Shown: in pieces, positions 1,921 through 59,304 of the stretch
Numbering within the stretch: position 1 is the first letter of the stretch
Layout: every line of letters starts with the position of its first letter
Assembly (NCBI RefSeq): GCF_001447785.1
Contig: NW_015167538.1
Span: 740,511 to 804,510, forward strand
From: Gekko japonicus
Taxonomy: Eukaryota
DNA: 64,000 nt
Direction of reading: 5' to 3'
Translations under genes and position numbers: made by a program
The notes under the pieces: generated by a model
Told to the model about the DNA's origin: nothing
Databases searched by the model: none
What the model saw: only the letters and a program-made list of their open reading frames with translations

Positions 1921-2083
1921 TTGCGGTTCCGCTCTTTCACCACCATGCGGGTCATGCTCTGGATGCACTGTGCCCGGTAGTTTTCGTAATGTGTTTCCCG
2001 TGTCACATCCTTCAGGTCCTGCATGTGGGTCCTCACCAGCATGGTGCGTAGCTTGACAAAGTCGCAGTGTGCGGGGTTCTCCA
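1921..2083 (-). CDS. SEPTIN4: Septin-4 exon ([54 protein letters not shown]); last exon in window
   Basis: Septin unique element near-identical to SEPT4; cag| acceptor, |gtatgt donor, 163 nt, phase 1-2. Confidence 0.95.
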
Positions 2084-2632
2084 CTGGCCAGGGGAAGACA
2101 GAGTCAGCAGGGTCATCAGGGATGGGGAAGCAAGGACGCTAGGGCAGAGCACCCGCATTGCCAGATGCAGCAGGTCCCAGGCTTGGTTTCTGTCTAGTTA
2201 TGACTGGAGATGCTGGGGATTGAATCTGAGACTTCCTGTATGGCAAGCAGATGCTCTACTACTGAGCTACGGCCACTCCCCTGACATTGGGGCCACTGGC
2301 CTTGCTATCTGTGAATGCTCCATTGGGTCAGAGCTAGTAAATACAGTACAATCCTTCTCAAATCCAGCATCTTTCCTCTTTTGAACATCCTGGGTTGGAT
2401 CCACGGGAAAACTAAATGAAAGCGGTAAATGGAGCAGATCTCTCGCCACTTTCCCATCCCCCAAGCAGCCCATAATTTGCTCTCAGAATCCTCTCGGAAG
2501 GCCCTGAGAATCTTGAGAACAAAATGCAGTCCATCCTTCTGCCCCCTGCAACTTGTGGGCAAAGCTCACATTTCTGCTGCAAGACACCTGCACCAAGCCA
2601 CAAGCCGGGAATGGGAATGAGCTCTCAGTTAC

Positions 2633-2729
2633 CTTCCACGATGCCCCACGGGTAAAGCCTCCCGCGAACCCGTCTGCCTTTGGCCTCCACCACTGTGTTG
2701 CTTCCAATCACAGCAAAAGGGATGCTCTC
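2633..2729 (-). CDS. SEPTIN4: Septin-4 exon ([32 protein letters not shown])
   Basis: Septin GRxYPWG motif; cag|...|gtaact; 97 nt, phase 0-1. Confidence 0.95.
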
Positions 2730-3227
2730 CTGGAAGAGAACAGCACTGTCAGAGGCACACCTGCTGGGTAGCAGCATCTCCTGTGGTTATTTTAGAGGTC
2801 TACAGGCCACCAGTCCATGAACCTGCTCAACACAGATCATGCTGCAAAAGCAATACCCCAATATAAACACAGTCAACAGTAAAGCCAGCCCCCCTCCACA
2901 CAAAAAAACCAGAAGGAAAGAACCTGCTAGGGGTGTAAAGACAAAAACCATACCCATAAAACAGCCCAGGGGCAGATCATAAGATTGGTAACAAAGATTG
3001 ACCCCTTCACTGAAAGGCCCAGGTAAACAGAAATGATACGGCCTGTGACCTGATGAAAAGGACAGTGAAGTAGATGACAGGTTAGTCTCAATGGGGGAGG
3101 CATTCCAAAGGTGAGGTGCCACCAATGAAAACATCCCATCCCTCGTCATAGTATCCACCACACCTTTGCAGGCAGGGGCACTAAGAGGTGGGATTGGGAA
3201 GAGGATATTAATTGGTGGGCTGAAGAG

Positions 3228-3569
3228 CAGGGGTCATTTCATAGAAAAAGAGGTGCAGGAGCTCATTAGCGTAACTCATTAGCATAACTTATTTGCATAT
3301 GCCACACACCCCTGACATCACCGGAAGTGTGTCCGAAGGCAACACCCACCTCTCAGGCTCCACTGGACTGTTTTGGATTGCTAGCTATGGGGGGCGGGAG
3401 AACGTGCAGATCTGTCATCGCAGATGAGGGAGAGCTTGTACCTGAAGGCGGGCCGGGGGGGGGGACTCTGCAACTTACCTGGGGGGTGGGGCTTGTTGCA
3501 TGTGCCCGCCCCCTGGCTCTTTACTGCCGGAGCTCCGCTCCTGTGCGCTCCTGCAGGAAATGACCCCTG
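3228..3569. mobile_element. hAT-type MITE, family A
   Basis: TIR caggggtcatttc / gaaatgacccctg and 8-bp TSD ctgaagag; related copies at 15166 and 61087. Confidence 0.9.
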
Positions 3570-4191
3570 CTGAAGAGTATGGGAAGGGATGGTCCTTCAG
3601 GTACCCTGGCCCCAAACTATTTAGAGCCTTCAATTGTAAGAACTTTGCATTGTCCCTGGAAACAAACAGGTAAATCGATGCAGGTCTATTTTTACTGCCC
3701 ACAGAGTCCAAAGGAACTGTATAGAATACTGGAAGAGAAATCATCTTGGGTACCACCTGTCTACTTGCGAAGGTGGGTGGTCCGTTACAGTTTCTAGAGA
3801 CAACTGGCAATACTCTCCTGACATTTCTTCCCCGAGCACTGGTAGCCCACGTGGAGAAATGTGTTGTACTTTGGAGCCTTGGACAGTACAAGACCTTCAC
3901 CTTGAGTTTTTAAAGGTTTTCCTCTCTCTTAGCAGAGCAGGAAGTGTGTGTGTGGGGTAGTCAATTGCTCTCCAGCTTCACCCAGCCAGACTTTAGAAAC
4001 GCTAATTGCTGCCTGACTGAATACAATGAGATGGTCAAGTCACACGGCAGCTAGAAGACAATGACACCTAGCAGGAAAGAAGCTTGGGGGGTTTAATTGC
4101 TGCCAATTACCGGGAAGGCTTTTTTGATACACAAAGAGAGCTAATAAAACCCTTTGGCACATAGGGGAAGGTCTCTTTTTTGCTGATTCCT

Positions 4192-4243
4192 NNNNNNNNN
4201 NNNNNNNNNNNNNNNNNNNNNNNNNNNNNNNNNNNNNNNNNNN
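4192..4243. other. Assembly gap (52 N)
   Basis: Run of N. Confidence 1.
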
Positions 4244-4730
4244 NGTGGGGGAAAGCAGGCAAACAAAGACTCCAATGTAGCGGAAACCTTAGAAACTTTG
4301 TAACTTCTACATTAATGATCTTGCCTTAGAATAACATCAACTAGGGCATGTATAGAATCAGGGACAGTGGAACGGCATGTTTATACTTTTCTTTTGGATC
4401 CTTTGCTCAGTCTGTTATTGTGCTTGAGAATATGTGTATGGGCATTTTCTTTTTAATAAATGTCTTATAATTTTTAATGTTTGTTGTTGTTCTCCACCAT
4501 TCAAACATGCTGCTTGAAACAGCCACCAATTGCTTCCATATTCACCACTTTGTCTGGAATTGCCCTGATTTGCTCACTCAATTTTACAGAGAATCCAGAC
4601 ACCACCATTGGCAATCTTTTGCCTTTCTCTGTTTTACTGCTTGTTCTTACTATTTTTTTTAGACCAGGTTTGTGGCCATTTTTTACAGTTTAATTTCAAC
4701 ACAGGGTGTCCAGGCTCCCCCCATCCTCAC

Positions 4731-4832
4731 CTTAAGGGCCAGATCCTGCGTCTTAAAATCATCATCTTCATCTGAATCACATTCTGGGAACTGGTAGATC
4801 CGGATTCCAAATTGCTCAATTTCATCACGGAT
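4731..4832 (-). CDS. SEPTIN4: Septin-4 exon ([34 protein letters not shown])
   Basis: SEPT2-group motif YQFPxCDSDED; cag|...|gtgagg; 102 nt, phase 0-0. Confidence 0.95.
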
Positions 4833-5017
4833 CTGGAAGGGGAAAATGATGCCTGAAACTGACAAAGCTTGATCATGGCTTGTTCCACATTTGCTGCAGG
4901 CTGAGGGCTCAATGCCACATGACTTAAAAGGATCCACACCAAAAGCAGCAGCGATGTGTCTAATTTGCCTCATCTTGGGAGAAGGCACCCACGTTTGTTC
5001 TCATGGCCTCTCCTCAC

Positions 5018-5135
5018 CTTGGTTTTCATCCGATCCACCTCAAAGGGTGTCAGGGTGTCAGCTTTGGCCAGGACTGGAACGATGTTCACACGCTGATGGA
5101 GAGCTTTCATGCATTCGATGTCCAGGGGCCGCAAC
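5018..5135 (-). CDS. SEPTIN4: Septin-4 exon with G4 motif ([39 protein letters not shown])
   Basis: AKAD G4 motif; cag|...|gtgagg; 118 nt, phase 2-0. Confidence 0.95.
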
Positions 5136-6919
5136 CTGCCAAGAGATGCAGTTAAGCACGCTGCGCATATCAGAAACTGGTCCTCCCCATACACACACAG
5201 AGCCTAAAAGTTAGGTTGTTCAAGACAGCCTTGTTCTGTTGTTCCAGTCAAGAAACATAAAGGCCATGGAGGACAGGCAAGAATTTGATGCTTGGCAATC
5301 ATTTTTCATTTGCACTGGGATTGTATTTTAGTAAGTTATCAATTACGTTCAATAAGTTTACTAGGCACATGTTAGGGGCTAACTATACATTACATGATCC
5401 TGAGTCCAACACAAGGACTTTCAATCTGACATTCCTTGAATGTTCAGCACTCAGACCCTATTCCCAAGCAGGTGGGGAAGGCCAATTTGGATCAGGGCCA
5501 CGACACAGAGGGAGAGGGAACTTAAGCCATTTCGTATGCACTGTTTTCCTGACCTGAAGTGGCCCTGGAAAACTGCTTTTTGCCCTGCTAGGGAAACCTA
5601 CTTGTACTGCACTGATGGTTACATATGGGTTTCCCCAGAAAAGCAACAAGCAACTCCCTGGGTCTGTTTCCGGTTGGGCAAATGGTGGGCAGTGAAGGCT
5701 GACACCACCTCTCTCAATTCAAACTGGTCCCAATCTGAACTAGGCCTCTACATGACTAGAATTTGAGTCTGAATCACAGAACACATTCTAGCTGAAAATC
5801 CTTGTGACGAATCCGGAAAGGACACTAAGATAGTGCAATGTTTATTTAGGCACTTCAAGACAAGCTACACAGATGCTGGGGATTCCCAGAGTAGGGCAGG
5901 CATGTAGACTGGTGCTGTGGTGCAAGAATTACTACCTTTCCACAGGGCATGTAAGGCAGAGATGTTCCACCAGGCATTTGGTTGAGGACAGCAACGGGAC
6001 CATATGACATCTGGCAATCTCATATACTCTACCCAACCCTTGCAACTCCCCCCCACCCCCCGCAAAGGCTGGGGAGCTGAATTTTCCCCACCATCTTGGA
6101 CTGAATATTGTTTTATTAATTGATTTGTTTCTAGGTAGTCTTAATGTTGGTTTTAATTTAAATTATTTATTGTATTCTATTCTGTTGTAAGCCACCCTGA
6201 GCCCTACTTGTAGGGAAGAGCAGCCTAGTAAATCTTTTAATTAATAAATAAATAAGTGGGGGGGGGGGAATCCCTAACTCTAACTCCAATTTAAAATGTC
6301 ATGTTTCAGTGGAGGAAACAGCATAGGGGGTGTTAAAATCCTTGATCCTCCATGCCACAGGCCCAATTCGTATCAGTCACCTCCCCCCCCCCCCACACAC
6401 ACATATATATCCCTGCTTTTTAAATATCAGGGGCTTCAACAGCAGATCCCCAATGTCACATATTGCTGGCCATGTAAATTCAAGTTGTTTATTCTGTTTT
6501 GCATTGGCTCATGATAACCTTCCCCAGTTATCTCCCAAGCATGAGCTCTGCCTCCAGGCCTGACCTGGCAAAACCATACCACAGGCTGAAACAAGAGGAA
6601 CATCCATGCCTTCTTCCTAGAGACCCTGGAAATTGTGAGGAAACAGAGGAAGGGATCTCTAACAGAGACCGTTCTTCCCCAAACCCCAAACTCAGGATTC
6701 TTTGGGTGAAGCTAAGGCAATTACAGTGGTATATGAGGGATACAGTGCTGTACTGCACACAGGGCCCCTATCAGCCAGCAGCTCACTAGGATGTCATACT
6801 GCAGCAAGGCTTGCTTGCCCGCTCACATAGCCCACAGCTTTTGGAACCAGCACTGTTATGCCCTGCTCCAAAAGTAAAGGCTGGCTTAGCTGGGCCTCAG
6901 TCCCCTCCACTTCCCCTAC

Positions 6920-7054
6920 CCGTGTCCGAAGGGTGAAATGAAGTAGAGGCAGCAGTGGATGCGGTTGTCCTGGATGTTCTTCCGGTTCAGGCCACTTTCG
7001 TCCCTGAAGTACTGTTCAAATTGCTGATCTATGTAGTCGGCCACAGGTTTCCAG
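6920..7054 (-). CDS. SEPTIN4: Septin-4 exon ([45 protein letters not shown])
   Basis: DxRxHCCLYFI septin motif; cag|...|gtaggg; 135 nt, phase 2-2. Confidence 0.95.
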
Positions 7055-7924
7055 CTGGGGAGGGAACAGAACAGGGGAGAAGAAGTTCTATAAAACAAGG
7101 TGGTAGGGTGCCAGCTCCAGGCCGGTGGCAGGGTGTGGCAGGGTCAGGGACCTGCCAAGGCCTGTGGGCTGGCAGAGGGCCTACCTCCACCTCCCCCCCC
7201 ACCACCCAGTGACTGGAGGCCCTTGACCTTCCATTTCCCAAATGAAAGCTACATCTGGAGGCGGTAGAAGAAGCAGAATGCAAGAGAATCGGACCCTGCT
7301 GCCTTCCCCAGGTCCGCCTTCCCCAAGCAGCCCAGAGGCCGTTCCGACCACACAGTGACTTTCTCTTATTCTTTTTTGACCAACCAGCAGTGATAGGGCT
7401 AAAAGGAGTGCAAGAAAAAGACAATTTTCATCCCACAGTGTAGCCACACTTGGATGGAGAAGGGAGCTGTGATGGGTGTGGGAAGGTGACCATGACCAGG
7501 GCTGTGAGATTAGAGCCGCGACTGGGCTGAGGAAGGAAGGCCTGGGAGAATGGAGCCACAGTAGACGGGTCTGTAAAAATGTGCAACCACTAAGAAGCCA
7601 GACCATAAATGTCTGCCAGCTGTGCACCAAATGCCTACTGGGCCGGGCAATGCCAGGTGAACATACTCCCCCTTCCTTCATCATCACCAGAAACTGAGGG
7701 ACACAGGAAGCTCTGCTGGGGTCAGTCTCATGTCTCCTCTCACGAGGATTTACCTGCCTGGCAGCCAGCTGGCTTTTGTCTCTAGCAGATTATTTTTATC
7801 CCAATTCTGGCTTCTATCCAGAAGTCAAACGGGCTCTCCAGGCAAGGCCTAATGGGATTCCCTGCCCAGGGCTCTGCCTGCTGCCAGGGCTAATTCCCCT
7901 CCTCTCTCCAAAGGGGAGACATAC

Positions 7925-8048
7925 CACTCTGTGTTGTTGACGGCGTCCCCAAAGCCCGGCGTGTCCACGATGGTAAGGCGGAGCTTCACGCCTTTCTCCT
8001 CAATGTCCACCACATGCTTCGTGATTTCTACCGTCTGCATGATCCGTT
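7925..8048 (-). CDS. SEPTIN4: Septin-4 exon with G3 motif ([41 protein letters not shown])
   Basis: DTPGFGD G3 motif; tag|...|gtatgt; 124 nt, phase 1-2. Confidence 0.95.
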
Positions 8049-8559
8049 CTAGACACAGGGAGAAAAGGACAGAAATGGGGTTTGTGGGGAAGCAGCACGC
8101 TAACAGGCAGGTGCAACGGCTACACAAACACCCCGACATACATCACAAAAGGCCAAAAATCCAGGCAGTGGCTTACTCCAGCATCCTGTTTCTGACAGTG
8201 GACAGCCAGATGCTTCTAACAGTCTTCCCTATTTTTGACCCCAGCATCTAAGAACAAGGTATACTGCCACTGAATATGGAGGCTCACAGCCAAATCTTCT
8301 CAAGCACCAATGTGGCAAACACAAGAGCCATCTCATAAAGGACAGAGAAATCTCTTGGCTCCTCCCAGGAGCCCATATTGAGAGGTACATTGCTTCTGTA
8401 CATGGAGGCTCCATTTAGCTATCATAGCTACCATTAAAAAGGGTATTTAATCTCTTTTTAATTAATTACTGATTACATAATAAATAAATAATTAAAACAG
8501 TTAAAAAGGCAGGAACGACACTAAATTCATAAGGGTCAACAATCCCAAATAGCTGGAAG

Positions 8560-9220
8560 CAACTAGGCCATAAGCCAAGAACAGGAAAAATCTTATACAC
8601 ATGGGCAGCATACGGTTGGAAAGCTACAGCAAGGGAGGCCAAATAATTGGGTGCAAGCCACCTCAACTGAAGGCCTGGTGGAACAGCTCCATTTTGCAGG
8701 CCCTGCAAAACTGTAATAGGTCTCACAGGGCCCTGATCTCAGATGGGAGCAAGTTCCACTAGGCTGGTCGAGGCTAAGCGGACGCCCTTTGGGTCGGAGA
8801 GAACCAGCAGATGATGTTCCGCCAAGCACAAGGCTCTCCAGAGCACATACAGTCTCCAGAGTAGTCCCTTCAATATGTCGGCCCCAGGCCACATAGGGCT
8901 TTACAGGTTAATACCAACACCTTGAAATGGATCCGGTACTCAATCGGTAGCCAGTGCAATTGGCACAGCACTGGCTGAATGCGAGCCCACACAGGCATTG
9001 CAGTCAGCAGGTGTGCCGCCGTATTTTGCACTAGCTGGAATTTCCAGATCAGCTTCAGGGGTAAGCCCGCATAAAGCAAGTTACAGTAATCAAGCCTGGA
9101 AGAGACCATTGCATGGGTCACTGTAGCCAAGTCCTGGGGGGAGAGACAGGAAACTAGTTGCCCGATCTGCCAAAGATGATAAAAGGCTAACCTGGCAACT
9201 GTGGTGACCACAGAGAGTGA
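8560..9220 (-). mobile_element. L2 LINE 3' fragment
   Basis: Translation HAMVSSRLDYCNLLYAGLP...QLVQNTAAHLLT...LHWLPIEYRIHFKVL is the L2/CR1-group ORF2 C-terminus. Confidence 0.85.
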
Positions 9221-9369
9221 GGATATCACAGCTGTCTTGCTCTATCAGACCAAAGCAAGGATATGTAGACCAGTATCCTGTTTCCAACAGACAGAGGCCA
9301 GCCTGAAAGTAAGCCTCCCTTGATGTTTGTCCTTATTAACTGCTTCTATACAGGGAGGCTCCATTTAAG

Positions 9370-10012: not shown

Positions 10013-10099
10013 CTTCTGCATTTAGGAGTTTGCGATCCTTGTACAGGTCAGTGAGAAAAAGACTGTTTACAAGGGTGGACTTCCCCAGCCCGGCCTCTC
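10013..10099 (-). CDS. SEPTIN4: Septin-4 exon with P-loop ([29 protein letters not shown])
   Basis: GxxGxGKS G1 motif; cag|...|gtaagg; 87 nt, phase 1-1. Confidence 0.95.
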
Positions 10100-16176: not shown

Positions 16177-16497
16177 CTCATCCGAGTCATAGGGGTCAAG
16201 CCTGCCCCAGGGGCTTCTGGGTCGAGAAGGGCTCGCCGGGGTCGGGGCAGCCATGTGCTGCTGTTGCAAGTCGAGGGGCTGCGGGCGATGGAAGGCCCTC
16301 TGCTCTTTTTCAACCATGGTGTCATCAGGGATGGTCCTGACCATGCTGGAAAACATCTTGGGCTCCGTATGGCCCAGACCTTCAGCCTTCTGGATCCCTT
16401 CCGATGGCACAAAGCGGAAGTACTCCTTGGAAGGGTAATCCTTGAGGAAGTGAACCAACTCAGCCTCTTCTGAGTCGTCCTTCAGAAAACGCTTTAT
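16177..16497 (-). CDS. SEPTIN4: Septin-4 N-terminal proline-rich exon (IKRFLKDDSEEAELVHFLKD...PRSPWGRLDPYDSDE)
   Basis: Start and end match SEPT4-specific IKRFLED..ELSKFVKD and RPRSPWGKLDPYDSSE, which distinguishes it from SEPT1/2/5; cag|...|gtaagc; 321 nt, phase 0-0. Confidence 0.93.
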
Positions 16498-18395: not shown

Positions 18396-18548
18396 TGTGT
18401 ATTCCCTTGGGATTCTGGCATGCTCTTCCGTCTCCCCCGGGGGGCAGGGATTGACACCCTCTGTCTGGGCACCAGCTAAGGGTACCTCTGCAGCACAGGG
18501 CTGGGTCTCTGTGGAGTCTTCTGGGGCTGTCCCTTCTGCCTCTGTTGC
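18396..18548 (-). CDS. Candidate SEPT4 cassette exon (ATEAEGTAPEDSTETQPCAAEVPLAGAQTEGVNPCPPGETEEHARIPREYT)
   Basis: ttctggtctcag| acceptor, aca|gtaaga donor, 153 nt, phase 0-0, open, acidic and protein-like, unique sequence. Confidence 0.5.
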
Positions 18549-28374: not shown

Positions 28375-28413
28375 CTTTGCCTTGTTCTCTGGCTCAGAGA
28401 TGTACGAAGCCAT
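28375..28413 (-). CDS. Candidate alternative first coding exon of SEPT4 (MASYISEPENKAK)
   Basis: aaaATGg Kozak context, aag|gtactg phase-0 donor compatible with downstream phase-0 acceptors. Confidence 0.35.
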
Positions 28414-38075: not shown

Positions 38076-38294
38076 ACTGGCCACCCCCAGTCCATGCAGC
38101 ATAGCCAGATGTTTAGTGTCAGCCTATAGAAACCCAAGTTCAAATCCTCACCATTGGTAGGCACGGGAGTTTGGGCTAGTCATTCTCAGCCTGCTCTACC
38201 TTACAAGGTTGTTGTGAGGTGAAAATGGAAGACAGGAGAACCACAAGTGCCACTCTAAGGTCCTTGGAAAAAGGGCAAGACAAAAATGTGAGAT

Positions 38295-38456: not shown

Positions 38457-40149
38457 AGAAGGATAGATATATGGGGGGGCTTGCCCCTCTGCCTGCAGGT
38501 ATATGAGAGAAGGAGAAGCTCTTTGCACAGGGCCCAGGAGACAGCCAGCACAGCTGACCTTTAAACAAACCATAATAATAACGCTTAGCATGTTTATAGT
38601 GCTTCTGGAGTGTTCAAAGCGCTTCACGTCCACTCTCTCTGGCCTCCTCACAACGCCTTTCTAAAAGAAGCAGGCGTGTAGCAGTTTGCAGGAGCTCAGG
38701 GCAGTATGCCTGGCTCTCCCTTCCTCGTGCTATCATCACAATAGCCCTGTGAGGTAGATCAATGGTTCCCAACATTTTGGTATGGTGACATCCATGTCCA
38801 TAGTCGCTTGGTATGGTGACCCACTTTAAAAAAAAGAGCATGCACAAAGCAACAAAACTGCTAAAACCTGGGATTCATAGGCTTCATGACCCAGTTTTAG
38901 GTCGGGACCCACAGGTTGGGACACACCGAGAGAGATAATGGGGGAAAGGAGAGCCATGTGTGCCACTCTAAACTCCTCAAACCAAAGGAAGCATAAACAC
39001 GCAATAGTGAGATTACATTCCTCTCTGCCCTGTCCTCCCTCTAACTGAACTCAGGTTTTGCAGCAGGACGTTATTTCCATTTCTAGATTGTCAGTTCTGC
39101 TGCTGTTTGGAGGACGCTCCCAGTGCAATCCTGTGCAGAGTTTTTCTCCAGTCTTAGCCGATTGACATGAATGGGTTTAGGCCGAAGTAATTCCGCACAG
39201 GGTTGCATTCTCTGTGCTCCGTCTGGTGCACGCTTACTCAGATGTCAGCCACACGGGGTTCAAAGAGACTTGGTGATGGTGAAGGAAAGTGCTGTCAAGT
39301 CACAGCCAGTGTTCCCTCTAAGCTGAGTTAGTGTGAGCTAGCTCACAGTTTTTTAGCCTCCGGCTCACAGATTTTTGTCTTAGCTCAGGAAGGAGGGCTT
39401 CAGAGCAAACTAATTCATGCAGCAGCCAAATCACTCGCTCACAACTTTAATGCCAGGAGCTCACCAAGTAGAATTTTTGCTCATAGGACTCCACAGCTTA
39501 GAGGGAGCCTTGGAGCTGACAGTGACCCTATAGAGTTGTCAAGGCAGGAAACATTCAGAGGTGGTTCGCCATTGCCTGCCTCCGCACAGCGGCCCTGGGC
39601 TTCCTTGGCGGTCTGGTCTCCCATCCATGTGCTAAGGAGCGCTAACCCTGCTCAGTTTCCAAGATCTAACGAGATCAGGCTTGCCTTGACCATCCAGGGT
39701 AGGACTCACAGAGACTTCGGCTCAGTTAAAAGGTGCATCAGACTGCAGCTTCAGCACACAGCCCATCTCTGGATTGTTACTGATGCTAATGAGGCTGTGG
39801 TTTTATGTTCCCGACCAGCAGAACATGGCTTCATCTGATAGTTCCCAGAGATGTAAGCACTCAGTCATGAATGAAATACCAGGCCAGGGTCACCCCAGAT
39901 CCTTCTCAAGCACCTGGCACAGAATCTAATTCAATTTAAATGAAGTAATTTTGAGCATGTCTGACATAAATTAGATTGTTTTGCTGCTTCCAGCTGACTT
40001 ACAGCAGCAGCACCCCCCCCACACACACACACACAGAAATAAGTTTCTGGCTTAGAAGCCTCTCTGGCTCCCTTTACGCAGACTGCATTGGCACGACCAT
40101 GACAAGAAAGGCATTCTGCACATGCTCCGGGTCTCTTGCCATTGCAATG

Positions 40150-40830
40150 ACGATTTTTGCCCTCTGCCAGCGCCGGCGTTGCTGGGTCGAAGCCGGTTTC
40201 TCAGGGCGATGCGTTGCACCCTCTCCCTCCTGCCCCAGCGCGGCCTCTGCGGGCCAACCCGGGCAAGGGCCTGGCCGCCTCGGGGGCTGGAGTACCAGGT
40301 GGTGCAGGCGGGAGGCTCGGCGACGGCATCGTAGCCGCGTCGAGGCAGCGGGGAAGCGGCGCCACAGAACCCCGTCGCCCTCCCAAGTACTCCGCCCGTC
40401 CTTCGAAGGGCGCGCGTCTCCCTCCCGCGGAGCGCACCAGGCCGATCCCGGCGGCTCCGGAGTCACTCCGGTTCCTGCCCATCCCCTTACCCTCGCCCAG
40501 CGTTTGGCGGAGCTCCTGGCCGCGGCTTCCTCCGCCGCGTCGCCGGCGAGGTTCCTCCGGCGCCGCCGGAATAGGACAGCCGACCGAGGCTGCGGACAGA
40601 CAGGCGGGTAGGGCGCTCATGTGATCGGCGGAAGGCAGGGCGGGCGGAAGGCAGGGCGGGCGGGGGAGCAGCCGGCCCCGCAGCCCGGGACGGAGAGCAG
40701 CGTCGGTAGCGCGCCTGGCCCAGTGGGGCATGTGCAAAGTGCGGAGCGTCTCCCGCTTGGGACATCTACGCCCAGTGCCCCCTCCCCCGGGCATGTGCAG
40801 AGTGCAGAAGTGCAGACTTCTGAGTGGGCC
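40150..40830 (-). promoter_or_regulatory. CpG island; probable internal SEPT4 promoter and first exon (donor at 40491/40490)
   Basis: Very high GC and CpG density, duplicated GC boxes (ggaaggcagggcgggc x2, 40630-40661), strong minus-strand donor gagg|gtaagg. Confidence 0.7.
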
Positions 40831-41019
40831 CGTGGCTTTACATTTCTGTAACTGAAAGTGTTCTTGGGCATGTGCAAAGCGCATACTGTATCCTCTGAGC
40901 CAAGCTGAGGTTCAGAAATAAGCAGTTAGTGCCTCGGGGCATGCACAGTATATATAGAACAGAGAGCACCTCTGGCCATGTTCAGAGTGTAGAATATAAA
41001 CCAGGAATAGCCACTGATG

Positions 41020-41236: not shown

Positions 41237-42456
41237 TGGCTTCTCTTATGTTCTTAGGAACCAACTTCACTAATCATCAGCAAACAGTACCTCTGAGCTT
41301 ATGCAGAATGCATCCGCTGAGGTGGCTCCCAATTTGTAAGGAAGGAGGAAGAGCCTTTGGCCTCTGCACAGTCCCCCAGATTCAGAAATCTCCACAACTG
41401 GGTGCCTCTAGGCATGTACAGAGTGTGGTGCTTCCTTTAAACCAGTTCCTGGTTTCAGAAGTATGATGAATAGTGTGGAAGGAGGCAAATGCTGTCCTAG
41501 GTATATGCAAAAGACTGCCCTTAAATCTGAACTCAGGGCTAGATACACACAACCATTCGTTTTTAGCAGTGCATCAGGTTGGTGGGTGCAGTGCTGCTAT
41601 TGTTTACTAATAATCCTTAGCACTTGCATAGTTCTTACACATATTTGTTGGGGGGTGGCTGTGGCAAAGTGGTAAAGCATCTGCTTGGCATGCAGATTAG
41701 GTCCCAGGTTCAATCTCCAGTTAAAGAGGTCTGGCAATAGGTGATATGAAAGACTTCTGCGTGAGACCCTGGAGAGCCGCTGCCAGTCCAAGCAGACAAT
41801 CCTGATTTTGATGGACCAAACGTCTGATTCAGTATAAGGCAGTTTCATGTGTTCATATATTTCACAGGCATTATCTCTTAGTCCTTCTTACAACAGGCCT
41901 GGAAGGCAAGCTAGTATTATTGCAGATAAGTAGGGGGCTGGCTCTCAGTGGTTAGAGTGTGTAGTGGCAGAGGCAAAATTTAAATCACAGACTTCCTAAG
42001 GCATGGATAAAACCCTGAGCCACTGAGCTGTAACAGCTCAGAAACAATGGTGTATAAAGGGGGTGGGATTACCGGCTGTAGGCACTGCCAGCATGAATTA
42101 TAAATGGACCATTTTTATATGGACCCAGGAATCCTACAATGCTCTGTTCATGTGTGTGTGTGTGTGTTCTGATGTGCATGTTTAGTTTTAATTCTTAAAT
42201 TGTTTATGTTTGTCTATTTATGTTGTAATCCACTCTGAGCCCCATGATTGGGGGGGGGGGGACAACGGAATTGAAACGGAACAAAAAATAAATAATAAAG
42301 GTATCAAGTTGCAGCCAGATAGTGGCAACCCCTCATGGGGTTTCCAAGTCCAGAGATTAACAGAGGTGGTTTGCCATTGCCTTCTAACGCTATAGCAATC
42401 CTGGTCTTCCTTGGTGGTCTCCCATCCAAGTACCAACCAGGACCAATCCCACTTAG

Positions 42457-44573
42457 GTATAATTAACTCATTGGCTTCAGGGAAGTCACCTGGGGAAGAC
42501 CTGATTCCGTCAGACTTTTACAAAGCTTTTCCCACATGGTGGTCATCCGTGCTAGCTACGGTTTTCACACAAATTAATGGCACTGGTTTAATCCCTCCTG
42601 GTTGGAAGTTAAGTATTATTGTCCCCATTCACAAGAAAGGGGACAAAACAGACCCACGGAACTACAGACCAATAAGCCTGATAGATATAGCAGCTAAGGT
42701 TTATAGTAAATACCTGTTGTTCAAGTTGGATGCCTGGGTCTTTGAGAATCACATCATCCACCCCCATCAAGCAGGGTTTAGGAAAGGTCTTTCTACAATT
42801 GATCACTGCCTTACTCTTCACCAGCTGGCTTATGCAAGCTTAAATGGTCCCACTAAGTCTTTATACGTAACATTTGTAGACTTGGCTGCGGCGTTTGATT
42901 CCATCGATAGGAATAGCCTTTGGCAAAAATTGGCAGATCTGAATATTGATAAGCGGTTGTTATTCTTATTACGTGAACTACACACAGATATTAGTGCCCA
43001 GATTAGAGTGGGAACATCGGGGTCTCTAACTAACAAAATTCCAATCCATAAAGGAGTGAAACAGGGGTGTGTGCTGGCCCCTTTATTGTTTAACTTGTAT
43101 ATAAACAAAATTGTTGACAGGCTATCAGGTCCGCAATTCTTCCCACCTACCCTTGGGAAGCATAAAATTTCAATTTTACTTTATGCGGATGATATGGCCC
43201 TAATATCACTTACAAAAATCGGGATGAGAAGATTATTGCAGCAATTGGGAATGTACTGTAAGGAAGAGACCCTTAACATTAACTTTGATAAAACCAAAGT
43301 GATGGTCTTTAGAAAAAGAGCTCAAATTTCCTCCTGGAGCATTCTTGGCAATTCAATAAATCAGAGTAGTACCTTTAAGTATTTAGGGATTACATTTAGA
43401 GAGAATCTGAACTGGAACGCTCATATAGCCATAGTAAAAGCATCTGCGACGAGGATTGTGGGATCCATTTTGAAGTTCTATTATACCAAGGGAGGTTTTC
43501 TTATTGATCCTGTTATAAAATTATTTAAAAGTAAGGTCATTCCCCACCTCTTGTATGGTGCCGAGGTTTGGGGATGGAAAGAGGATATACTCACTAGTAT
43601 TGAAACAATCCAAAATCAGTTTTTAAGGCGCATCCTGGCTCTTCCTAAGGGAACACCAGTTGCCCTGATGAGAGCAGAAACTGGTCTGCCTTCTCTAAGG
43701 GCGAGGGTGTATCTTGCGATTCTAAAATCTTGGAAGAAAATCAGAGCTGCTAGCACTGATTCGTTCAGCCAACTGGCCTTTAATTCAATGCTATCTAAAG
43801 ACTTAGATCGTTCTTGCTTCCTCAATAACCTACTACTAAGATATTCCATTCCTGACGACCTCCTTAGCTCCTCAACAAATAACTTAGATCTCAGAGAATG
43901 GGTATTTAAGCATGATGCTCTGCTAGATAGACACTTCATTTTAAAAACACAGTCTGCTACCTGGTTTAAATCATTTAAGAATGATCATTTTAGATCACCT
44001 TATCTGGTTAATATAGATAATCATAACCTTAGAGCAGCTTTTACATCTTTGCGCTTTGAATCAATGCCTACGGCCGTGTTGGTCGGCCGTTACAACAGAA
44101 CACCCAAGGCACAGCGTTTATGTATTTGTGGCTCTTCTGCTGTTGAGGATCTCTCCCATTACATTTTTAATTGCTCATTGTACTCCCAGCCTAGGTCAAA
44201 ATTTTTATCTGGTATTTTATCAGTTTTAAGCTTTTATTCAGTCTCAGAGAAGATTATATTTTTGCTAGCCGATGCCAATGCTGATGTATCCCATAGAATG
44301 GCTTTATTTGCCTTGGCTGCAAGGAAAATACGGGCCAACGCTGCTCCTAGCTAATACTGATTTTAGTGGGTATGTTGTGAATTAATTAACTGTTCATAAC
44401 CTCGGTTTTAATTGTTCATAACCTCGGTTTTAACTGTTCATAACCTCGGTTTTATGGATTTATAATGTTGGACTGTATCTTATTTTATACAATTTTTGTG
44501 TTTTATTGTGCTCTTCTCTGTCTGTGGTTTGTAATGGCCTATGGCTAAATACAATAAAATCTTCTCTCTCTCT
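42457..44573 (+). mobile_element. 5'-truncated non-LTR retrotransposon (RTEX-like) with uninterrupted RT + CCHC ORF to 44354
   Basis: NYRPISL, QAGFR, FVDLAAAFDSI, GVKQGCVLAPLLF, YADD, YLG, LYGAEVWG, CxC...EDLSHYIFNC; aataaa then (ct)n tail; 7-bp TSD cacttag inside a 5S-SINE. Confidence 0.9.
44386..44453 (+). repeat. 22-bp tandem repeat x3 in the LINE 3' UTR
   Basis: taactgttcataacctcggttt repeated three times (one mismatch). Confidence 0.95.
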
Positions 44574-50859: not shown

Positions 50860-52553
50860 CAGGATGGGTTTTTTTCCCCATATAATGGAGGAAATGAGAG
50901 AGTTCTTAAGGATAAAGGAGTTTGCTATCCTAAGCCATTAAGACTTTGGACACTTGAAACTTGCAGCCCATTTTAACTTGCATTTACAGGTCAGGCTTTT
51001 CTGTGCCTCAGCAACGGCTTCTCTAAACACTGTGGCTGTCTTTGGTTGCCTTTTCGGCTTCCCATTCCCTCATCTAGAGAGACAGACAGAAAGTGCAAGA
51101 GAGCGGTGTGCACTGCAGATTAATCAGTAGTTTCTTAGGGCTGTGCCTTTTGCCCAGTCCAGAGGCACACGGACCCCTCCACTTAACCCCACCCTTGGGT
51201 TGGGCTTTTCTAGATGTATGCCTCCTAAGAGTTGGTAAACTAGTCACCACTCCTTCTTCCGAGAGGAAAGAAAGCCAGCATGGTGTAGTGGTTTGAGTGT
51301 TGGACTAGGACCTGGGAGGCAAACAAATTAGAAGGCCCTGAAAGTCATCTTGCCCAGGGGCCCAAAAATCTGAAGCCAGCTCTGATTTTGGGGGGGTGGT
51401 ATCATCATCATCATCATCATCATTGCCTCAAACAGGACAGGACAGGGTATGGCCTGTTTCAGGGAAACAGGTATATTGTGCCAGAAATCCCAGTCCGACA
51501 AATCATCAGTCTGCAGAATCCCGACTAAGTGATAGCTAACTCAACAGTGCCACCTACAGTATGAACTCAGATTATCATGCTTACTAATACGATTGTCACA
51601 TGACCACAAAAAGCTGCCTTATGCAGAGTTGATTGGTCCATCCTGCTCTAGGAGCTGAGAAAAGTTCTTCCCAGCAGTACATGCATGAACAGAAGGGTTT
51701 CATGCCTTCTATGGTCCAGCCAGATCAACATTCTAGCTCACCTGCCCACCCTTGTTAAGAATCTGTGACCCAAGAGGGAAATAACTCTATTCACCACATA
51801 TGAGCAGGCAAGAGGGGCAATTTCCAAACCTGGCCTAATGCCCCGCTGGAATTCTGACATGTATACACACAACCCCCAAACCCAGAATAAAATGAAACAA
51901 AAATACAATAAAACAGATCTTCCGACCACAGGTTGGAGAGCAGAGATTTCTGCAACAGCTGTCTGTCTTTCCCAAGGTGTGCTATTTAGTAATATGATAT
52001 TGCGGGGGACCAGATAACCGAAATATGCATTCACTGAGAAACAAAAAATATGGCCTACATCTGTTAGGGTAACAATAAAAATGAATGAAAATGAACACCA
52101 TCCATTTAATTGATCTCCCTGGTGTTTGGCACTCTAGCTTAGAGAACACAAGAGACATGAAACTGACACTGGAACTTTCCAATCATCAGAGTCAAGCAGA
52201 CCATGCAACAGAAGGGATTAAGGGATTGTTTCTGAATGGATGAAGAAAAACAAAGAAAGCCCTGTGTGTTACATCTGTATAAATGGGAATAATCACAAAA
52301 ATAACAAAAGTGAGTCAACCACTTGAGCCAAAAACAAAACCTGTACCTCCCTAACAGGTCAGCCAGTCTGAAAACCACAACATGAATCACAAATGAAGCC
52401 AGAATTAGCCAATGCACTAATGCATCCCCTGAGATAAGAATAGCCCTTACCTCTTTGGGAGTGGAGGCAAGGGGAAAACCAATCCAGCACACTTTGGATG
52501 TCACTCAACTATTAAAATGCTTCAGATCGCATTGCATGGAGGGCTTCTCTTAC

Positions 52554-52561
52554 CTCTTCAT
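52554..52561 (-). CDS. SEPTIN4: 8-nt microexon (ATGAAGAG) of the long SEPT4 isoform, completing D-E-E
   Basis: cccttaaag|ATGAAGAG|gtaaga; converts phase 1 to phase 0 and yields LK-DEE-IKRFL as recalled for the human long isoform. Confidence 0.8.
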
Positions 52562-54889
52562 CTTTAAGGGGCAGGTCCCGGGGAGGAGCCATTCCCAGAG
52601 GGGATGAAGTCAGAGAGAGGAGCAGATAGAAGGCAAAAATCAGAAAGAGATGGAAACCAGTTAGAGTCACACCCCAAACAAGCAATTGATATCAGGGAGG
52701 GCTCAGTCTACTCTCCAAAGCTCCAATCACCAGGGCTGTTCTTGGAGGTCCTATTGTACCCACCAGAACATGTGAGTACCAAGCACCACTTGGACTCCAA
52801 ACACATGCATCCTAATCTATTGAATTATCATGGCTTTTTAAAAGAAGGGGGGTTCCAGTGCATACAGGGAACTCCACAGCCCCTAAGAAGCTTCCCTCTG
52901 TACTGTAACAGAAGCTCCCTGCTTTGTGTGTGTCAGGCGCCATCAAACCACAGCCAGTTTATGGTGCCCCATAGGTTTTTAGAGGCAAGAGATGAACAGA
53001 GGTGGTTTGCTATTGCCTGCCTCCACATAGCAACTCTACGGTTCTTTGGGGGTCTCCGATCCAAATACTAACCAGTGCCAACCCTGCTTAGGTTCCAAGA
53101 TCTGGCTAGCCTGGGCCATCCAAGTCAGGGCCTACAAATGCAAAACTGAAATTCCTCCCTTGAACCTGCTTCCGCAGCCTCTTGATTTTTTAGGGGCAGG
53201 GGTCTTTCATGGATGCCATTGATAAGGTTTCTGATGGCACTTTTAATAAGTGGATGCTTTAAACTTTTTTGCGATCTATATGTTTGTTTTTTAATCTGTT
53301 ACCTGCCTTGGGTAGGGTTGCCTCAGTACATACTAAATGGTGAATGTTGAGTGTTAACCACCTCCACTATTGTAGAAGCCTAATCGGCAGAAAGAGAACA
53401 TATCAGTGGAGCGAATAGAAAACTAGTGGAAGAAGAATTGTTGACACTTTATTTCATTTCACAGCTAAAGAGTATCAGCTATCTGAAGAAGCAGAACATG
53501 AATGCGGAAGTGAAGCCAGACGTGTATAGCTGCTGCTCATGGAAGATGCAGAACCTTTGTCCTCCTGAAGCTGTTTATACAAAGGATTTGTGGACTTCAT
53601 TTGAGTTTTCCCTTTGTATCAAGTACTTTTTGATCTTAGCTCTTTAAGAACATATAAGGGTTTGTGGAACTTGAATAAGGATTTAAAACTGTTTGAATTG
53701 TTTTGTACATTATAATCTTTCTGCTTTTGTTCGTAATTCATTCACGGAGTGTCTTTATATTGATACAGCCTCCAGGTGATGGCTGGAGATCTCCCGCTAG
53801 TACAACTGATCTCCAGGTGACAGAGATCAGTTAACCTGGAGAAAATGTTCCCTTTGGAAGTTGGATTCCATGGCATTATGCCCTGAACCCTGCCTTCCTC
53901 AGGCTCCACCCCCAAAACTCCAGGTATTTTCCAGCCTGGAGCTGGCAACCCTAGCCTTGGATCCCAGTTGACTGGGAGAAAGGCAGGCTTGAGATGGCTT
54001 AAATAAATTGATATACATAAATAGGATGGTTGTATGCATCTGAGTGTAATTAACATTGTACACACAGAAACAGTATGGTCAGTCTGCTCGGTCACAAGCT
54101 TTTGGTCAATTAATTAATCCCAGATAATTAATCAATAAAGCCAGATAATTAATCAATAAAACCAGCTTTTATCTCTTGACCAGCCTCCAAGCAATGAAAC
54201 TGCTTTTTGGGTCTGATATTTTGGGGGGTTAAAATGATCCATCCAGCTGACAAGGTAAAACAAGAAGGCAACAAATAATGACTCCAAAAATTCTAATTAA
54301 AATAAAAGCACAATGTGAGTTCTTGAGGGCTATTTAATATGTGACCTATAATTAAATACCCAGATGCTCGGGAAGCACATCTGGACTAACCTCTTCCCTG
54401 TTAGCAAGCACTTCAGGTATTTATCCTCCATAAAGTTATCTAGGCAACAGTTAAGATAATTCCCTCCCCCTCCTAAGTTTACTTGGAGAAGAAGCACAAC
54501 AGGCAAAAGGACAGTCGATCAAACCACAATGGGATCATTAAAAAGTCTCCCTAACCCTCGATGTCTTTGCTGGTTTATATCTCAGTCCAGGAGTACATAA
54601 TAATAAGGTTTGGCTCATCTATTGCATAAATGTATCTCACAGGTTGGCCGGACTTCAAAGTCATCCATCCCGTCTCTCCCTCCTCCCCCCCCCCCCCCCC
54701 CCCCCAACCAACAAACACTGCAAGAAAGAATCTCAGGAACGGACAAGCCATCAGCCAAGGAGAGTTTAAAGACAAGGTCTGGGGAACGGTGCCATGACCA
54801 AAGCTCAAAGAGGATTTCTCCCCTGCTTCTTAATTTCCCCTACTAGTCTTTCCATAGATTGAACTACACTTTCTACAAGAAACACCCAC

Positions 54890-54934
54890 CTTTAAGGCAC
54901 CAGAGAATGTTGCTGTACATCTCATCGGAGACAC
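54890..54934 (-). CDS. SEPTIN4: C17orf47-like / long SEPT4 exon 2 (GVSDEMYSNILWCLK)
   Basis: Matches human C17orf47 DVSEEMYNRVIWWLK; long pyrimidine tract ttccag|, donor aaag|gtgggt; 45 nt, phase 1-1. Confidence 0.88.
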
Positions 54935-56429
54935 CTGGAACAGAGAAGGGAAGAGAGAGAGAGAGACCCATGAGACACTGCAGTGCAGCACTGCGGGCGC
55001 AGGAGCAGAGCCAGACCACTGTTGTCTGCTCGAGGTATTGGCCAGGATTCTCAGATCAGGATGCAGGCAGGCTACTGGCACTGCTCAGCCTCCGTATCTT
55101 TCTTGGACTACCCTGGCAGGGGTCAAAACAGCCATGGAGTGGACCCCAGCTTGAAAATGGAGGGAAACGTAGCCTCCCTCTGGGCTTTCATCTCCAAAAA
55201 ACCATCTGGATCCTAAAACGACACAGTGATGACCCGACAGCTTCGCTCCAGGGGCCCTTCCTTGTTGGCTGTGGCCCAGCCCACACTTGGCCCTCCTAGG
55301 AGGTAGACTTCAGAGGCTGACCAAGATATTAGGAGGTGGTTAAATGACCAGCGGGGTGGGTTGTTGAATTAATTGGGAGATTTTTTAATAAGAGCAATAA
55401 GGAGGAGTGCCATTTGGATTTCGGATCAATCCTGGTCAGGTCAGATGTCCCAGCATGCTTTGCGCTCTGCAGTTCTTTGCACCTCACGGGCGGGAACTGA
55501 GCCCATTTGTCTGCTGTGAATCTGTTCAATTTCCAGCCAGTTGACATTCTGGAACCGCACAAAGGAGGTGAAACCAACGGCATTAGGTATTTGGGGCAGA
55601 ATGTCTCTGGACATGGAAGTTTCATTGAACTATCATGGCTAGGCAGGGCCATAGCTAACATGGGGCCCCTCCCCCTCCCGAATTCCCACATGCCCTGCAG
55701 CCGAATCCCACATGCCTTCTCCCAGTCCCCTCACACACCCACAGAGCATGTGGCACACAGAGGGAAGCACTGGAAGAAGACGAGGCGGGGAAAATCGGGC
55801 GAAGCCGCGGGTCAAAATGCGGCCATGTGGCTTCGAGTGGGAAATTGACCAATGGAAACGGGGCAAAGGGAGGCGTGACGGCGGCACAGCTCCTTGTGCG
55901 AAATCAGCCCATGCTGTTTTTTTTCTAATGGGGCAAACTGCTGCTCCCCATGGTCATTTCAGATAAGGAAAATAGCTCACAAGGGGGGGGAACCCTCCTC
56001 CTATACACTGTGGTCTCAATCCAAACTGAGATCCAAGCTGCCCCCACTCAGCTCACCGGAACAGCAAGTTTCCAGCAGGGAATCCCCAGCACACATCTAA
56101 TAGAAACATGTCTGGAGGCTCCTCTTCCCCTTATCTACAGACTTTGGGATTTTTAACCTGACTGTCGAATACCATGGAAGAAATGGAATTTGTTCATTCA
56201 ACATTATTCCCATTCATTTTCATCATCCTCATGGACATAATGAGTGGAGCTTTCAGTTATTTCGGAAACAAATTCCTATTGCAAATGCTGTCTTTGCACC
56301 CTTTTTGCCTCACTTTGCTCTGCACTGAACAGGAATTGGACACTTGCAAACACGATGGAGCCTTTCCACTGCTCAGGGAAAACACCCAGCCTATAGCTGG
56401 GAGAGACAACACAGATTCTCATAACATAC

Positions 56430-59304
56430 CCACAAAAAAAGCACTAAACTTCCCTCGGCATGACTTCATCAGGTCTTCAGTCTCGTGGGAGGGACCAGCA
56501 TGTTCTAGCCACTGGCCACCTTGCCCTGGATCTGCAGCTGTGGGCATCTGTTCCGGAGGTGCTTCCAACTTTAGCACATCTTGACATGGGATATCCATCC
56601 TCAAAGAATTCCAAGCAATCTTTGACTCTGCAGGAGAATCCAGCCTTCCTGCTATCTCTCCTGGAGGCTGCAGTGGGCTGATAGGCGTGCACCCCATCAT
56701 GTCCGTAACTGGTGGGTTGCTGGACTTGTGGCCCATGACTTCCTGAGGTGGCAGGCTGCTCAATTGGCTGTGAATCCATTCTGGAGCTGGTGGGCTGGTG
56801 GGCTTTTGCCACATCCATTCTGCAGGTAGAGGGCTGGTGTTTTGCTCTAGAACCAATGGGCTAGTGATCTTTCTGGTTATCTCTTGTGGATCTGGAGGAT
56901 GGGTATCTGTCTCTAGTAAGGACCACCAAGGGGACTGTGGCCCAAACTTAGCTAATGGCCTAGGAGGCATAATACCAGGGGGCAAGGCCACCTCTGTGCA
57001 TGGTGAGGCCCAGAGGCTTACATCTCTGTTTGGATAAAGACAGGGCCTGACAACTGGCTTGACTTCCATGCATGGTGACACAGAGAACAGTTCTGTTTGG
57101 GTTGACATGTTCTTTGAAGAATGGCAAGGCCTGTGGAAGTATTCCTGATTCAGCCCTGATGAAATCCCGAGAGACGTTTCAGTTTTCCTGGACAGTGAGC
57201 CTCTGTGGGGAATTTCAGACCCTAAAGAGAGGGTGTGTGGGCAGGTGTCCTCCATCTCTAGATTGAGAGGGCATCTGTACTCAGATTCACTTTCTGGGTG
57301 AAAAGCAGGCTTGTAGGCTGACCAGTTCTCTTTCTGAAGAGAACCCCTTTGGTTAAGAGGAGGCTCTGTTTGGAGGGAGCTCCTCCTCAACTCAGGCTCT
57401 GTGAGAAGGGAGGCCCTGTGAGCTGGATCAGACCCTTTTTTGAGGGAACCCCTTCTCAGTTCATTATCAGTAGACAGAGACCCTCTGTGAGGTAGTGCAG
57501 TTCCTGGAGAAAATGAATTCTTATGGGTTGCCTCCATCGCCTCATGGAGTGCGCACCTGTACTCAGACTCGCTTTCTGGGTGGAAAGCGGGTCTATATCT
57601 CAGTGTGATCTCCGGCTGAGGAGAAACCTCAATGGTGGCTGCAGGCAAGAGGAAAGTTTTACCAGCCCCCCTGGCTTCTGACTGAAGAGGTGCCTTGGCA
57701 GTTGTTAGCAACTGTGTCTGAGGAGGTTCACTTTTCGCAAAGGACAGCCTATAGATAGGTTCCGTTTGAGTGCATGCATCTTTCAGAACATGTCTGCGGA
57801 TGAGTTTTTGGGTTGGCTGAGGTAAATTTTGCTGCACTGATTCAGTCACCGGCATAAGAGAAGTCTTGGGGGCTTGCAGGAACTCTTTTCTCAGATCAGT
57901 CGTTTGGGTCGATTCATCTTTTGGGTTGGCAATGGGTCTTGTGAAGCGTTTTGTGGATGGCTGAGGGGCATCACGTTGTGGTGAGGATGAAAAAATTAAT
58001 TTGTTCTCCATTTGGGATTTTCCTGGCCTTGGTACCATTTCTGGTCCTGTCTGGTGTTTCTGGCACACTTCTTCCCTCTGGGAATTAAGGCCTTGCTGCA
58101 TTGCCAACAACGTCCGGCTGTGGGGCACTGAAAGCTGCCCTGGCTGGAGAGAATATCTTACACTCCGGTAGACCAGAATCCCTGGGGGTGAGATGTTTCT
58201 GTCTGTTAGCCGTCCTTGTTGAGGACTGTCGCTCTCTCGAGCACTGTGGGAGAGTCCACTCCCTTGCCTCGAGGGGTCACTTTCTCGACGGGACGAAGCA
58301 CTTGAAGGGACATCGCTTCTTCTCGGTGGAGAAGAATTCCGTGAAACGTTGCTCGGTTGCCTTTGGGACGGTGTCTGTGGAAAGTCACTCCCTCTTCGCA
58401 AAGTGGTATCCTGAGGGAGGTTGGCCCCTCGTGGAGAAGAATCTCTTCGAGCAGCCTCACTTCTTCTCTGAGGAGAAGCATTTTGGGAAAGATCACTGGC
58501 TTCCCTCAGAGAAGAAGCACCTTGAGAGAGCTCACTTCCTCTTCGGGAAGAGGTGCTTTGCCTGACTTCGTTTCCTCTCAGGGGTGAGGCACTTCGAACG
58601 CCATCATTTCCCCTCAGAGATGAGCCTCTTTGGGCACTATTTCCTCTTTGAGGTGAACCTCCTCGGCTACTGTCATTTCCTCTTGGGGGTGGGGCGGTTC
58701 TTGGGACCTCGCTTACTCTTGGGACTGAGGTGGGCTGCAAACTCATTCGATGGTGCTGAGTTCCAGTGGGAGATGGGTTGCTATTGGGAGGATCACTGCT
58801 TCTTCTAAAACCATCATTTCCCCTCAGGGATGAGCCTCTTTGAGCACTGTCATTTACCCTTGGAGCTGAACCTCCTCGGCTACTGTCGTTTCCTCTTGGG
58901 GGTGGGGTGGTTCTTGCGACCTCGCTTACTCTTGGGGGTGACGTGGACTGCAAGCTCATTCGATGGTGCTGAGTGCCAGCAGGAGATGGGTTGCTGTTGG
59001 GAGGATCACCGCTTCTTCGAAAACCATCATTTCCCCTCAGGGATGAGCCTCTTTGCGTAGTGTCATTTACTCTTGGAGCTGAACCTCCTCGGCTACTGTC
59101 GTTTCCTCTTGGGGCTGAGGTGGTTCTCTGGACCTCACTTACTCTTGGGAGTGAGGTGGGCTGCATGTTCATTCGATGGTGCTGAGTGCCAGCAGGAAAT
59201 GGGTTGCTTTTGGGAAGATCACTGCTTCTCCGGAATGACGAACTTCTATCGTAGCCCCGTTGGGATGGATGGCTCTGGGACAGCTGGCTTGCTGGTTGGC
59301 CCAT
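56430..59304 (-). CDS. SEPTIN4: C17orf47-like giant coding exon (958 codons) of the long SEPT4 isoform
   Basis: 961-aa ORF; motifs KDACTQTEPI, PPRPLAKFGPQSPWWSLL and KFSAFFV correspond to human C17orf47 KDEAVQTEPI, PPRSLPRYGPDSSWWPLL and RFTAFFL; phase-1 donor gtgg|gtatgt at the homologous position. Confidence 0.88.
58590..59235 (-). repeat. Coding tandem repeat, 213 bp (71 aa) x3
   Basis: aaaaccatcatttcccctcagggatgagcctctttg recurs at 58807 and 59020 (213 bp apart); the protein shows three GTQHHRM units. Confidence 0.95.

Follow-up and report, generated by a model that had tools for sequence, protein, structure and literature searches.

A predicted giant septin-4 and a partial tandem duplicate of its gene in Gekko japonicus

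The septin-4 locus

Here, we analysed a stretch of 64,000 nucleotides (nt) of the genome of the gecko Gekko japonicus (GCF_001447785.1, NW_015167538.1:740,511-804,510; hereafter, the window, with its flanks cited as G000:C7828 coordinates), which holds a septin-4 gene (SEPT4 copy A) predicted to encode a giant septin with a C17orf47-like N-terminal arm; a second, tandem copy of the same gene (copy B) lies just outside the window, to its right (Table 1). The first-pass annotation of this DNA had proposed that the large arm exon splices in frame to the GTPase exons across a 36-kb intron. The exon chain from 59304 to 1921 could be reproduced without a stop: its 12 minus-strand exons add up to 4169 nt, or 1389 codons and 2 nt, with AG and GT at every internal exon junction of the spliced model. 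The arm exon occupies a 965-codon stop-to-stop frame, and the other two frames of the same strand contain 39 and 50 stops. The long intron measures 36,056 nt (52553-16498), and the low-complexity arm, put at ~976 amino acids (aa), indeed counts 976 aa up to the IKRFL motif.

Two small exons connect the arm exon to the IKRFL exon. The second, of only 8 nt, looks like a genuine microexon, judging from its sequence context: a strong donor, a pyrimidine tract, an AG-free zone that covers 140 nt upstream and, ~98 nt upstream, a CTAAC branch-like site. At its 3′ end, copy A extends to the left of the window, where two coiled-coil exons, typical of the SEPT2 group, complete a protein of 1442 aa; its computed mass of 161 kDa bears out the earlier estimate of ~160 kDa. 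With the 52-nt alternative last exon instead, the product would comprise 1406 aa (157 kDa). The IKRFL exon ends in the SEPT4 signature PWG(R/K/Q)LDPY(D/E)S, and both copy A and copy B carry the features of PF00735, namely, the septin G1, G3 (DTPG) and G4 (AKAD) motifs and the septin-unique element.

Table 1. Features of the SEPT4 locus of Gekko japonicus. Positions are those of the window unless prefixed G000:C7828.
Feature	Position	Strand	Remarks
Duplicated unit A, ~79 kb	encloses the whole window, 1-64000
Duplicated unit B, ~66 kb	G000:C7828 ~811750-878200		right of window
SEPT4 copy B	G000:C7828 866929-813555	-	right of window
Copy A arm exon (C17orf47-like)	56430-59304	-	2875 nt, 958 codons + 1; Ser/Pro/Arg-rich; twin in copy B at G000:C7828 866929-864553
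Tandem repeat in arm exon, 213 nt x 3	58592-59229	-	single in copy B and Paroedura
45-nt exon, VSDEMYSNILWCLK	54890-54934	-	conserved among amniote long isoforms; read-through would terminate the protein after GGCFL
8-nt microexon (DEE)	52554-52561	-	brings phase back to 0
IKRFL exon	16177-16497	-	common to SEPT4 isoforms retrieved alongside
Copy A, eight GTPase exons	11682-11589, 10099-10013, 8048-7925, 7054-6920, 5135-5018, 4832-4731, 2729-2633, 2083-1921	-
Copy A, coiled-coil exons	G000:C7828 725583-725484, 724275-724216		left of window
Short alternative last exon, KTEPSTLRLCCSDCSTE, then stop	G000:C7828 733087-733036 (A), 813606-813555 (B)	-	in both copies; conserved in turtle, lizards, birds
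Alternative first coding exon, MASYISEPENKAK	28375-28413	-	copy A only; 11/13 identical to Paroedura isoform X5
153-nt cassette exon (ATEAEG...EYT)	18396-18548	-	phase 0-0, in frame; copy A only
Internal CpG island	40100-41000	-	copies A and B
Inverted pair of one-mismatch CRE-like sites	59479-59507		175-200 nt upstream of arm ATG; identical in both copies
Head-to-head VPS37-family 5′ fragment	63440-63604; also G000:C7828 807512-807709	+	duplication passenger

A partial tandem duplicate

When exon 10 served as the query, a second match with 92% identity appeared 78 kb away, and the arm likewise matches two places in G000; a third exon-10 match, on contig C1795, proved to be a repeat fragment devoid of a septin frame. 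The two units align collinearly in 49 blocks, and 8.5% of 28,994 non-coding nt are mismatched between them. One end of the duplicated unit lies just past the short alternative last exon of SEPT4 and the other in the middle of a VPS37-family gene, and copy B lacks the coiled-coil tail because the breakpoint excludes those exons. No clear repeat pair was found at the duplication junction.

Copy B consists of 13 exons, and its 12 introns all have GT-AG ends; its open frame of 1233 aa continues into its own short last exon, the only spliced end found for this copy. Two new AGs precede its microexon, both in frame; use of a new AG upstream would extend the microexon to 56 nt and the protein to 1249 aa, as in a Gekko kuhli model. 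The products of copy B would thus have a mass of 138-140 kDa. In the 184 kb examined, the coiled-coil exons, the first exon at 28413 and the cassette exon at 18548 each occur once only, in copy A, and are missing from copy B. Automatic annotation already includes two B-type models, the G. japonicus septin-5-like protein XP_015269023.1 and G. kuhli KAL8198714.1. Both omit the short last exon, the former also the arm, and neither name flags a duplicate fixed to one isoform. Their septin nature is plain: the G. kuhli B protein scores 422 bits on PF00735 (cut-off, 26.2 bits), and XP_015269023.1 matches solved septins with E values down to 1e-130.

A second haplotype erroneously placed in tandem could, in principle, mimic such a duplication. 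The region does include an N run of 6.3 kb besides some short gaps, and gap filling could yield tracts identical between the copies. Nevertheless, we consider an artefact hardly credible, given the 8.5% non-coding divergence with private insertions, the 42 B-specific residues shared with another species, and the absence of N runs both from the junction and from the expected places of the exons that copy B lacks. The duplication itself, according to the indels and residues shared among copy A, copy B and G. kuhli B, appears to have followed the split from Paroedura, and it probably predates the split from G. kuhli, which has the orthologue of copy B. In a GTPase tree of 11 rows, copy B clusters with the G. 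kuhli protein (100/100), and copy A is not resolved as the sister of copy B. No B-like protein outside Gekko was found by name among 32 matches (302-963 aa) to the B-type GTPase from 7969 candidates, a search that judged new matches by name and identity and in which 90% clustering could hide some. The protein-search matches also include no B-type protein of Paroedura or Crotalus, the genomes of which were not searched. Nor did we find the tandem duplicate in the literature searched, which did not cover subscription journals. To our knowledge, septin gene numbers are very stable in amniotes.

Long septin-4 in other amniotes

The giant isoform is not new: its novelty had been overrated, because RefSeq models of squamates already hold it. 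Isoform X7 of Paroedura picta (XP_077167920.1, 1294 aa) has the junction WWLK-DEE-IKRFL and isoform X2 of Crotalus tigris (XP_039202180.1, 1323 aa) the junction WWLK-DEE-IKQFL; in architecture and junction both resemble the G. japonicus form, and the triplicated repeat is confined to copy A of the latter. A search with the IKRFL exon passed 45 of 91 candidates; the named ones are amniote models annotated as septin-4, as septin-5-like or as a hypothetical septin. Among 13 proteins chosen for length or junction, 9 (from a gecko, a snake, a turtle, a vole, a deer mouse, a koala, a swan and a guineafowl, plus the contig-derived protein P0032) combine the peptide of the 45-nt exon with a three-residue microexon and IKxFL. 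Of the other 4, two bird models lack the 45-nt peptide and join the arm directly to DEE, that of G. kuhli shows an extended microexon, and that of Sceloporus goes through the cassette exon. The turtle giant model consists in part of retroelement sequence.

The mammalian long SEPTIN4, which includes the former C17orf47 (DUF4655) exon, shares with the gecko form the arm exon, the 45-nt exon, the DEE microexon, the IKRFL exon and the GTPase; the vole and deer mouse junction reads WWLKDEEIKRFL, and the motifs KD..TQTE and PPR.L.K.GP.S.WW.LL are common to gecko and mammals. By contrast, the gecko arm is twice as long, can be aligned only at short motifs, and has WCLK where mammals have WWLK. The first-pass annotation had held this architecture to be ancestral to amniotes and the squamate arm to be much longer than the human one. 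Given that the gecko, snake, turtle, bird, rodent and koala models share the junction, giant SEPT4 was likely present in the amniote ancestor, so that the first statement holds as a likelihood. As to the second, squamate arms of 810-976 aa exceed the 489-541 aa of the mammals and the 383-481 aa of the birds retrieved, a comparison that did not include the human protein; human C17orf47 has been merged into a SEPTIN4 isoform of ~1000 aa. Part of the length of the copy A arm comes from its private triplication, which accounts for ~141 aa and leaves an in-frame gap of 423 nt when copy B is aligned.

At the level of sequence, the arm is divergent. An arm search returned 7 relatives among 7990 candidates, the named ones all squamate, and the closest four arms are 65-75% identical to that of copy A. 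Against DUF4655 (PF15548; cut-off, 27 bits), Crotalus reached 30.9, Paroedura 25.7 and G. kuhli 12.2 bits, the best stretches falling on the final 24-54 positions of the profile, a part that takes in the 45-nt exon. When a profile built from 7 squamate arms was run against 1.84 billion representatives, it gave 8 matches, none of them full-length and non-squamate or a named older form. The likeness of the arm to C17orf47 is thin, and homology is supported by position, exon phases and three short motifs.

In humans, the sperm annulus is lost when exon 1 of SEPT4 carries the nonsense alleles p.R69* or p.R241* (PMC11648301), and an annulus is present in the sperm of a lizard (PMC3364797). By analogy with human and mouse (PMC11648301), the giant SEPT4 of this gecko likely serves the sperm annulus. 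The short C-terminus (...LCCSDCSME-type in turtle, lizards and birds; ...KDRSRN in rodents) is a splice option of one gene in those animals, whereas copy B is fixed to such an end.

Constraint on copy B

The coding sequence of copy B bears the marks of purifying selection. Between the copies, nonsynonymous divergence (dN) is 0.051 and synonymous divergence (dS) 0.125, a ratio of 0.41, with 0.31 for the GTPase exons and 0.44 for the arm. Each of the 8 coding indels has a length divisible by 3, as against 58 of 284 non-coding ones (P ~3e-6). Under neutrality, with half of the divergence assigned to copy B, 14 frameshifts (9.4 outside identical tracts) and ~7 stops would be expected, and none is seen; over the same history, the VPS37 passenger decayed while the frame of copy B stayed open. 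Copy B thus has the open frame and the purifying selection expected of a functional paralogue, with gene conversion as a caveat.

This constraint appears to be relaxed. With Paroedura as the outgroup, 25 GTPase changes fall on copy B and 6 on copy A (p = 0.0009), and 18 of the 25 are common to G. kuhli; for the arm, the respective counts are 40 and 27 (p = 0.14). The changes in copy B include, at near-invariant columns, AKADT to AKADA and YQFP to YQFL, along with R to E, S to W, K to T and R to W in the last helix and E to K and S to C in the helix-2 region. The placement of these changes onto the helices of the gecko sequence is tentative, as is the mapping by which we take the Glu/Arg pairs kept in copy B to be the canonical salt bridges. 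The last helix and the end of helix 2 of septins form the interface between N- and C-termini (NC interface; PMC7201284), and septin coiled coils mediate filament pairing (PMC9802686).

Interpretation and alternatives

Taken together, these findings make it probable that copy A makes a giant SEPT4 that likely serves the annulus and that tandem copy B is a partial duplicate, under purifying but relaxed selection and perhaps biased toward germ cells. Frames, splice signals, exon content, the duplication with its breakpoints, and the rates were read directly from the DNA, and promoter use and germ-cell roles were inferred. The parts of this reading differ in strength: it is very likely that the giant form is made from copy A, and likely that copy B is functional, a germ-cell bias of copy B, taken by itself, is evenly balanced, and a change in its filament behaviour is doubtful.

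We propose that a germ-cell promoter ahead of the arm, to which the CRE-like pair lends weak support, would drive the long form in spermatids, and that internal first exons of copy A would yield the ordinary SEPT4 of 470-530 aa. The arm, of low complexity and probably disordered, may help to build or place the annulus. Copy A would retain all isoforms, and copy B would be frozen into one: since it is without the coiled-coil exons and the two internal N-terminal exons, it should yield only coiled-coil-less, chiefly arm-bearing SEPT4, under relaxed constraint.

Several observations weigh against this reading. With respect to the giant form, the RefSeq counterparts are predictions; in several lizard annotations (P0003, P0005, P0006 and P0007), the arm forms a protein of its own; the arm exon of the window, taken alone, has zero Pfam matches at E of at most 0.1; and copy A scores below the arms of Paroedura and Crotalus in comparisons with each of two mammalian arms. 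Furthermore, when 4 of 15 sequencing runs, the RNA origin of which is uncertain, were mapped on 52200-58550 (the arm and small-exon side), no read or contig spanned the 45-nt or the 8-nt exon, no joint touched an exon and no expression of copy B was shown, at a depth over the arm of 0-2.3. Almost all of the mapped records were repeats. Four short arm pieces with 0-1 differences mapped at a depth of ~2, from two runs that may be RNA; two of the pieces lie where copy B differs by 12% and therefore derive from copy A, and the other two lie in tracts identical in both copies.

The arm-only lizard models would suit a scenario in which the arm is made solely as an independent C17orf47-like protein, terminated by read-through of the 45-nt exon, with the in-frame path to the GTPase unused. 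Indeed, both copies encode the read-through ending WCLKGGCFL followed by a stop, and the conserved end of the arm has, in copy A, lost 12 nt and undergone a D-to-G change. However, the microexon, its branch-like site and the AG-free zone have been retained, the DEE-type junction recurs in conserved form in species ranging from geckos to mammals, and P0032 carries the joined form, all of which makes this scenario quite improbable.

With respect to copy B, the short end is not diagnostic of testis, because long isoforms elsewhere end in either C-terminus, and copy B need not be testis-only, because it retains the internal CpG island. Its GTPase also departs from the consensus at 14 of 251 near-invariant columns (at least 95% conserved; 251 of 306 columns across 33 distinct orthologue cores), which would be compatible with decay as well; G. 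kuhli B departs at 12 of these columns, copy A at 2, and the other proteins, which themselves defined the consensus, at 0-7. The septin-4-like protein of Hemicordylus capensis (P0012) has 7 such departures. In addition, the copies share 50 identical tracts of 60-464 nt, of which 13 span at least 200 nt against an expectation of 4e-5; these occur in exons and introns and also in the internal CpG island, and elsewhere the copies are ~10-15% apart. Sixteen derived residues are common to A and B and absent from G. kuhli B, 4 of them outside the long identical tracts. The tracts and the shared residues point to gene conversion, with assembly error as a possible source of the tracts, and conversion from copy A could help to keep copy B open.

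It might accordingly be asked whether copy A alone makes the giant isoform and copy B is slowly decaying, its frame held open by chance and by conversion from copy A. The concentration of polarised GTPase changes on copy B (25 of 31), the near-invariant columns affected, the long identical tracts, the shared derived residues and the absence of any B-specific read in the 4 low-depth runs all fit such decay. Opposed to it are the complete lack of frameshifts even outside the identical coding tracts, a dN well under dS, the sharing of most B changes with G. kuhli, in which the predicted B protein likewise remains open from mid-arm to the end of the GTPase, the GT-AG ends kept in every intron, and the in-frame position of both new AGs. 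On balance, decay seems unlikely, and we prefer a copy B that is constrained, if loosely.

If the favoured reading of a giant copy A and a constrained partial duplicate is correct, the giant isoform by itself merely adds another gecko to the species with this known and clinically relevant isoform of the sperm annulus. The duplicate carries more weight: as a partial duplication that fixed one isoform and went on to change near-invariant residues, it offers a clean test of what the arm does, what the coiled coil does, and what the short tail rich in cysteine does. The analysis also corrects two automatic gene models and reveals a conserved alternative last exon. A further step, which we regard as speculative, is a full split of SEPT4 in Gekko, with copy A serving all tissues and copy B acting as a dedicated germ-cell septin that lacks a coiled coil and combines an arm of 800 aa with a short cysteine-rich tail and a remodelled NC interface. 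If so, copy B would alter the way in which the filaments of the annulus pair up, terminate or attach to membrane, and the locus would represent a natural experiment in which a splice isoform turned into a separate, faster-evolving sperm gene.

Alternative starts, ends and neighbouring features

The region of the short last exon is identical between the copies over 289 nt, and the cysteine cluster of this exon could be a putative lipid-attachment site. The internal CpG island likely acts as an alternative promoter. Sites resembling the cyclic AMP response element (CRE) number 8 in the window against 3.9 expected, and 6 of 100 shuffles reach 8; CREM may act at the pair upstream of the arm, although support for such a role is weak.

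Several candidate starts differ from those of other squamates. The MGSNE start ATG of the latter is gone from both copies, by a 33-nt deletion in copy A (59304-59316) and by a change to CTG in copy B (G000:C7828 ~866960), so that both would begin at MGQP instead. A donor ~100 nt below the microexon (52504-52451) resembles the first exon of Paroedura isoform X4, the ATG of which is not retained in copy A. In the long intron, a single ATG-GT(A/G)AG donor was found, at 38154, as a candidate end for the first exon of an 'M-IKRFL' isoform; it falls outside the collinear blocks of copy B. The same intron harbours a non-LTR (long terminal repeat) retroelement reverse transcriptase in a 652-codon frame (42396-44354, plus strand; RVT_1, E = 7e-37) that is missing from copy B.

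As for the neighbours, human SEPT4 is flanked by MTMR4 and TEX14, and the upstream neighbour in the gecko is a VPS37-family gene. The VPS37-family fragment, which we take to be most like VPS37D, gives PF07200 matches at G000:C7828 807512 and 875739, with a later VPS37 exon only at 880829 (a weak match). The fragment beside copy A has lost its ATG to a 38-nt deletion, and the one beside copy B retains it. A Euleptes gene model takes the opposite strand of this fragment region, probably wrongly, as the first exon of the arm.

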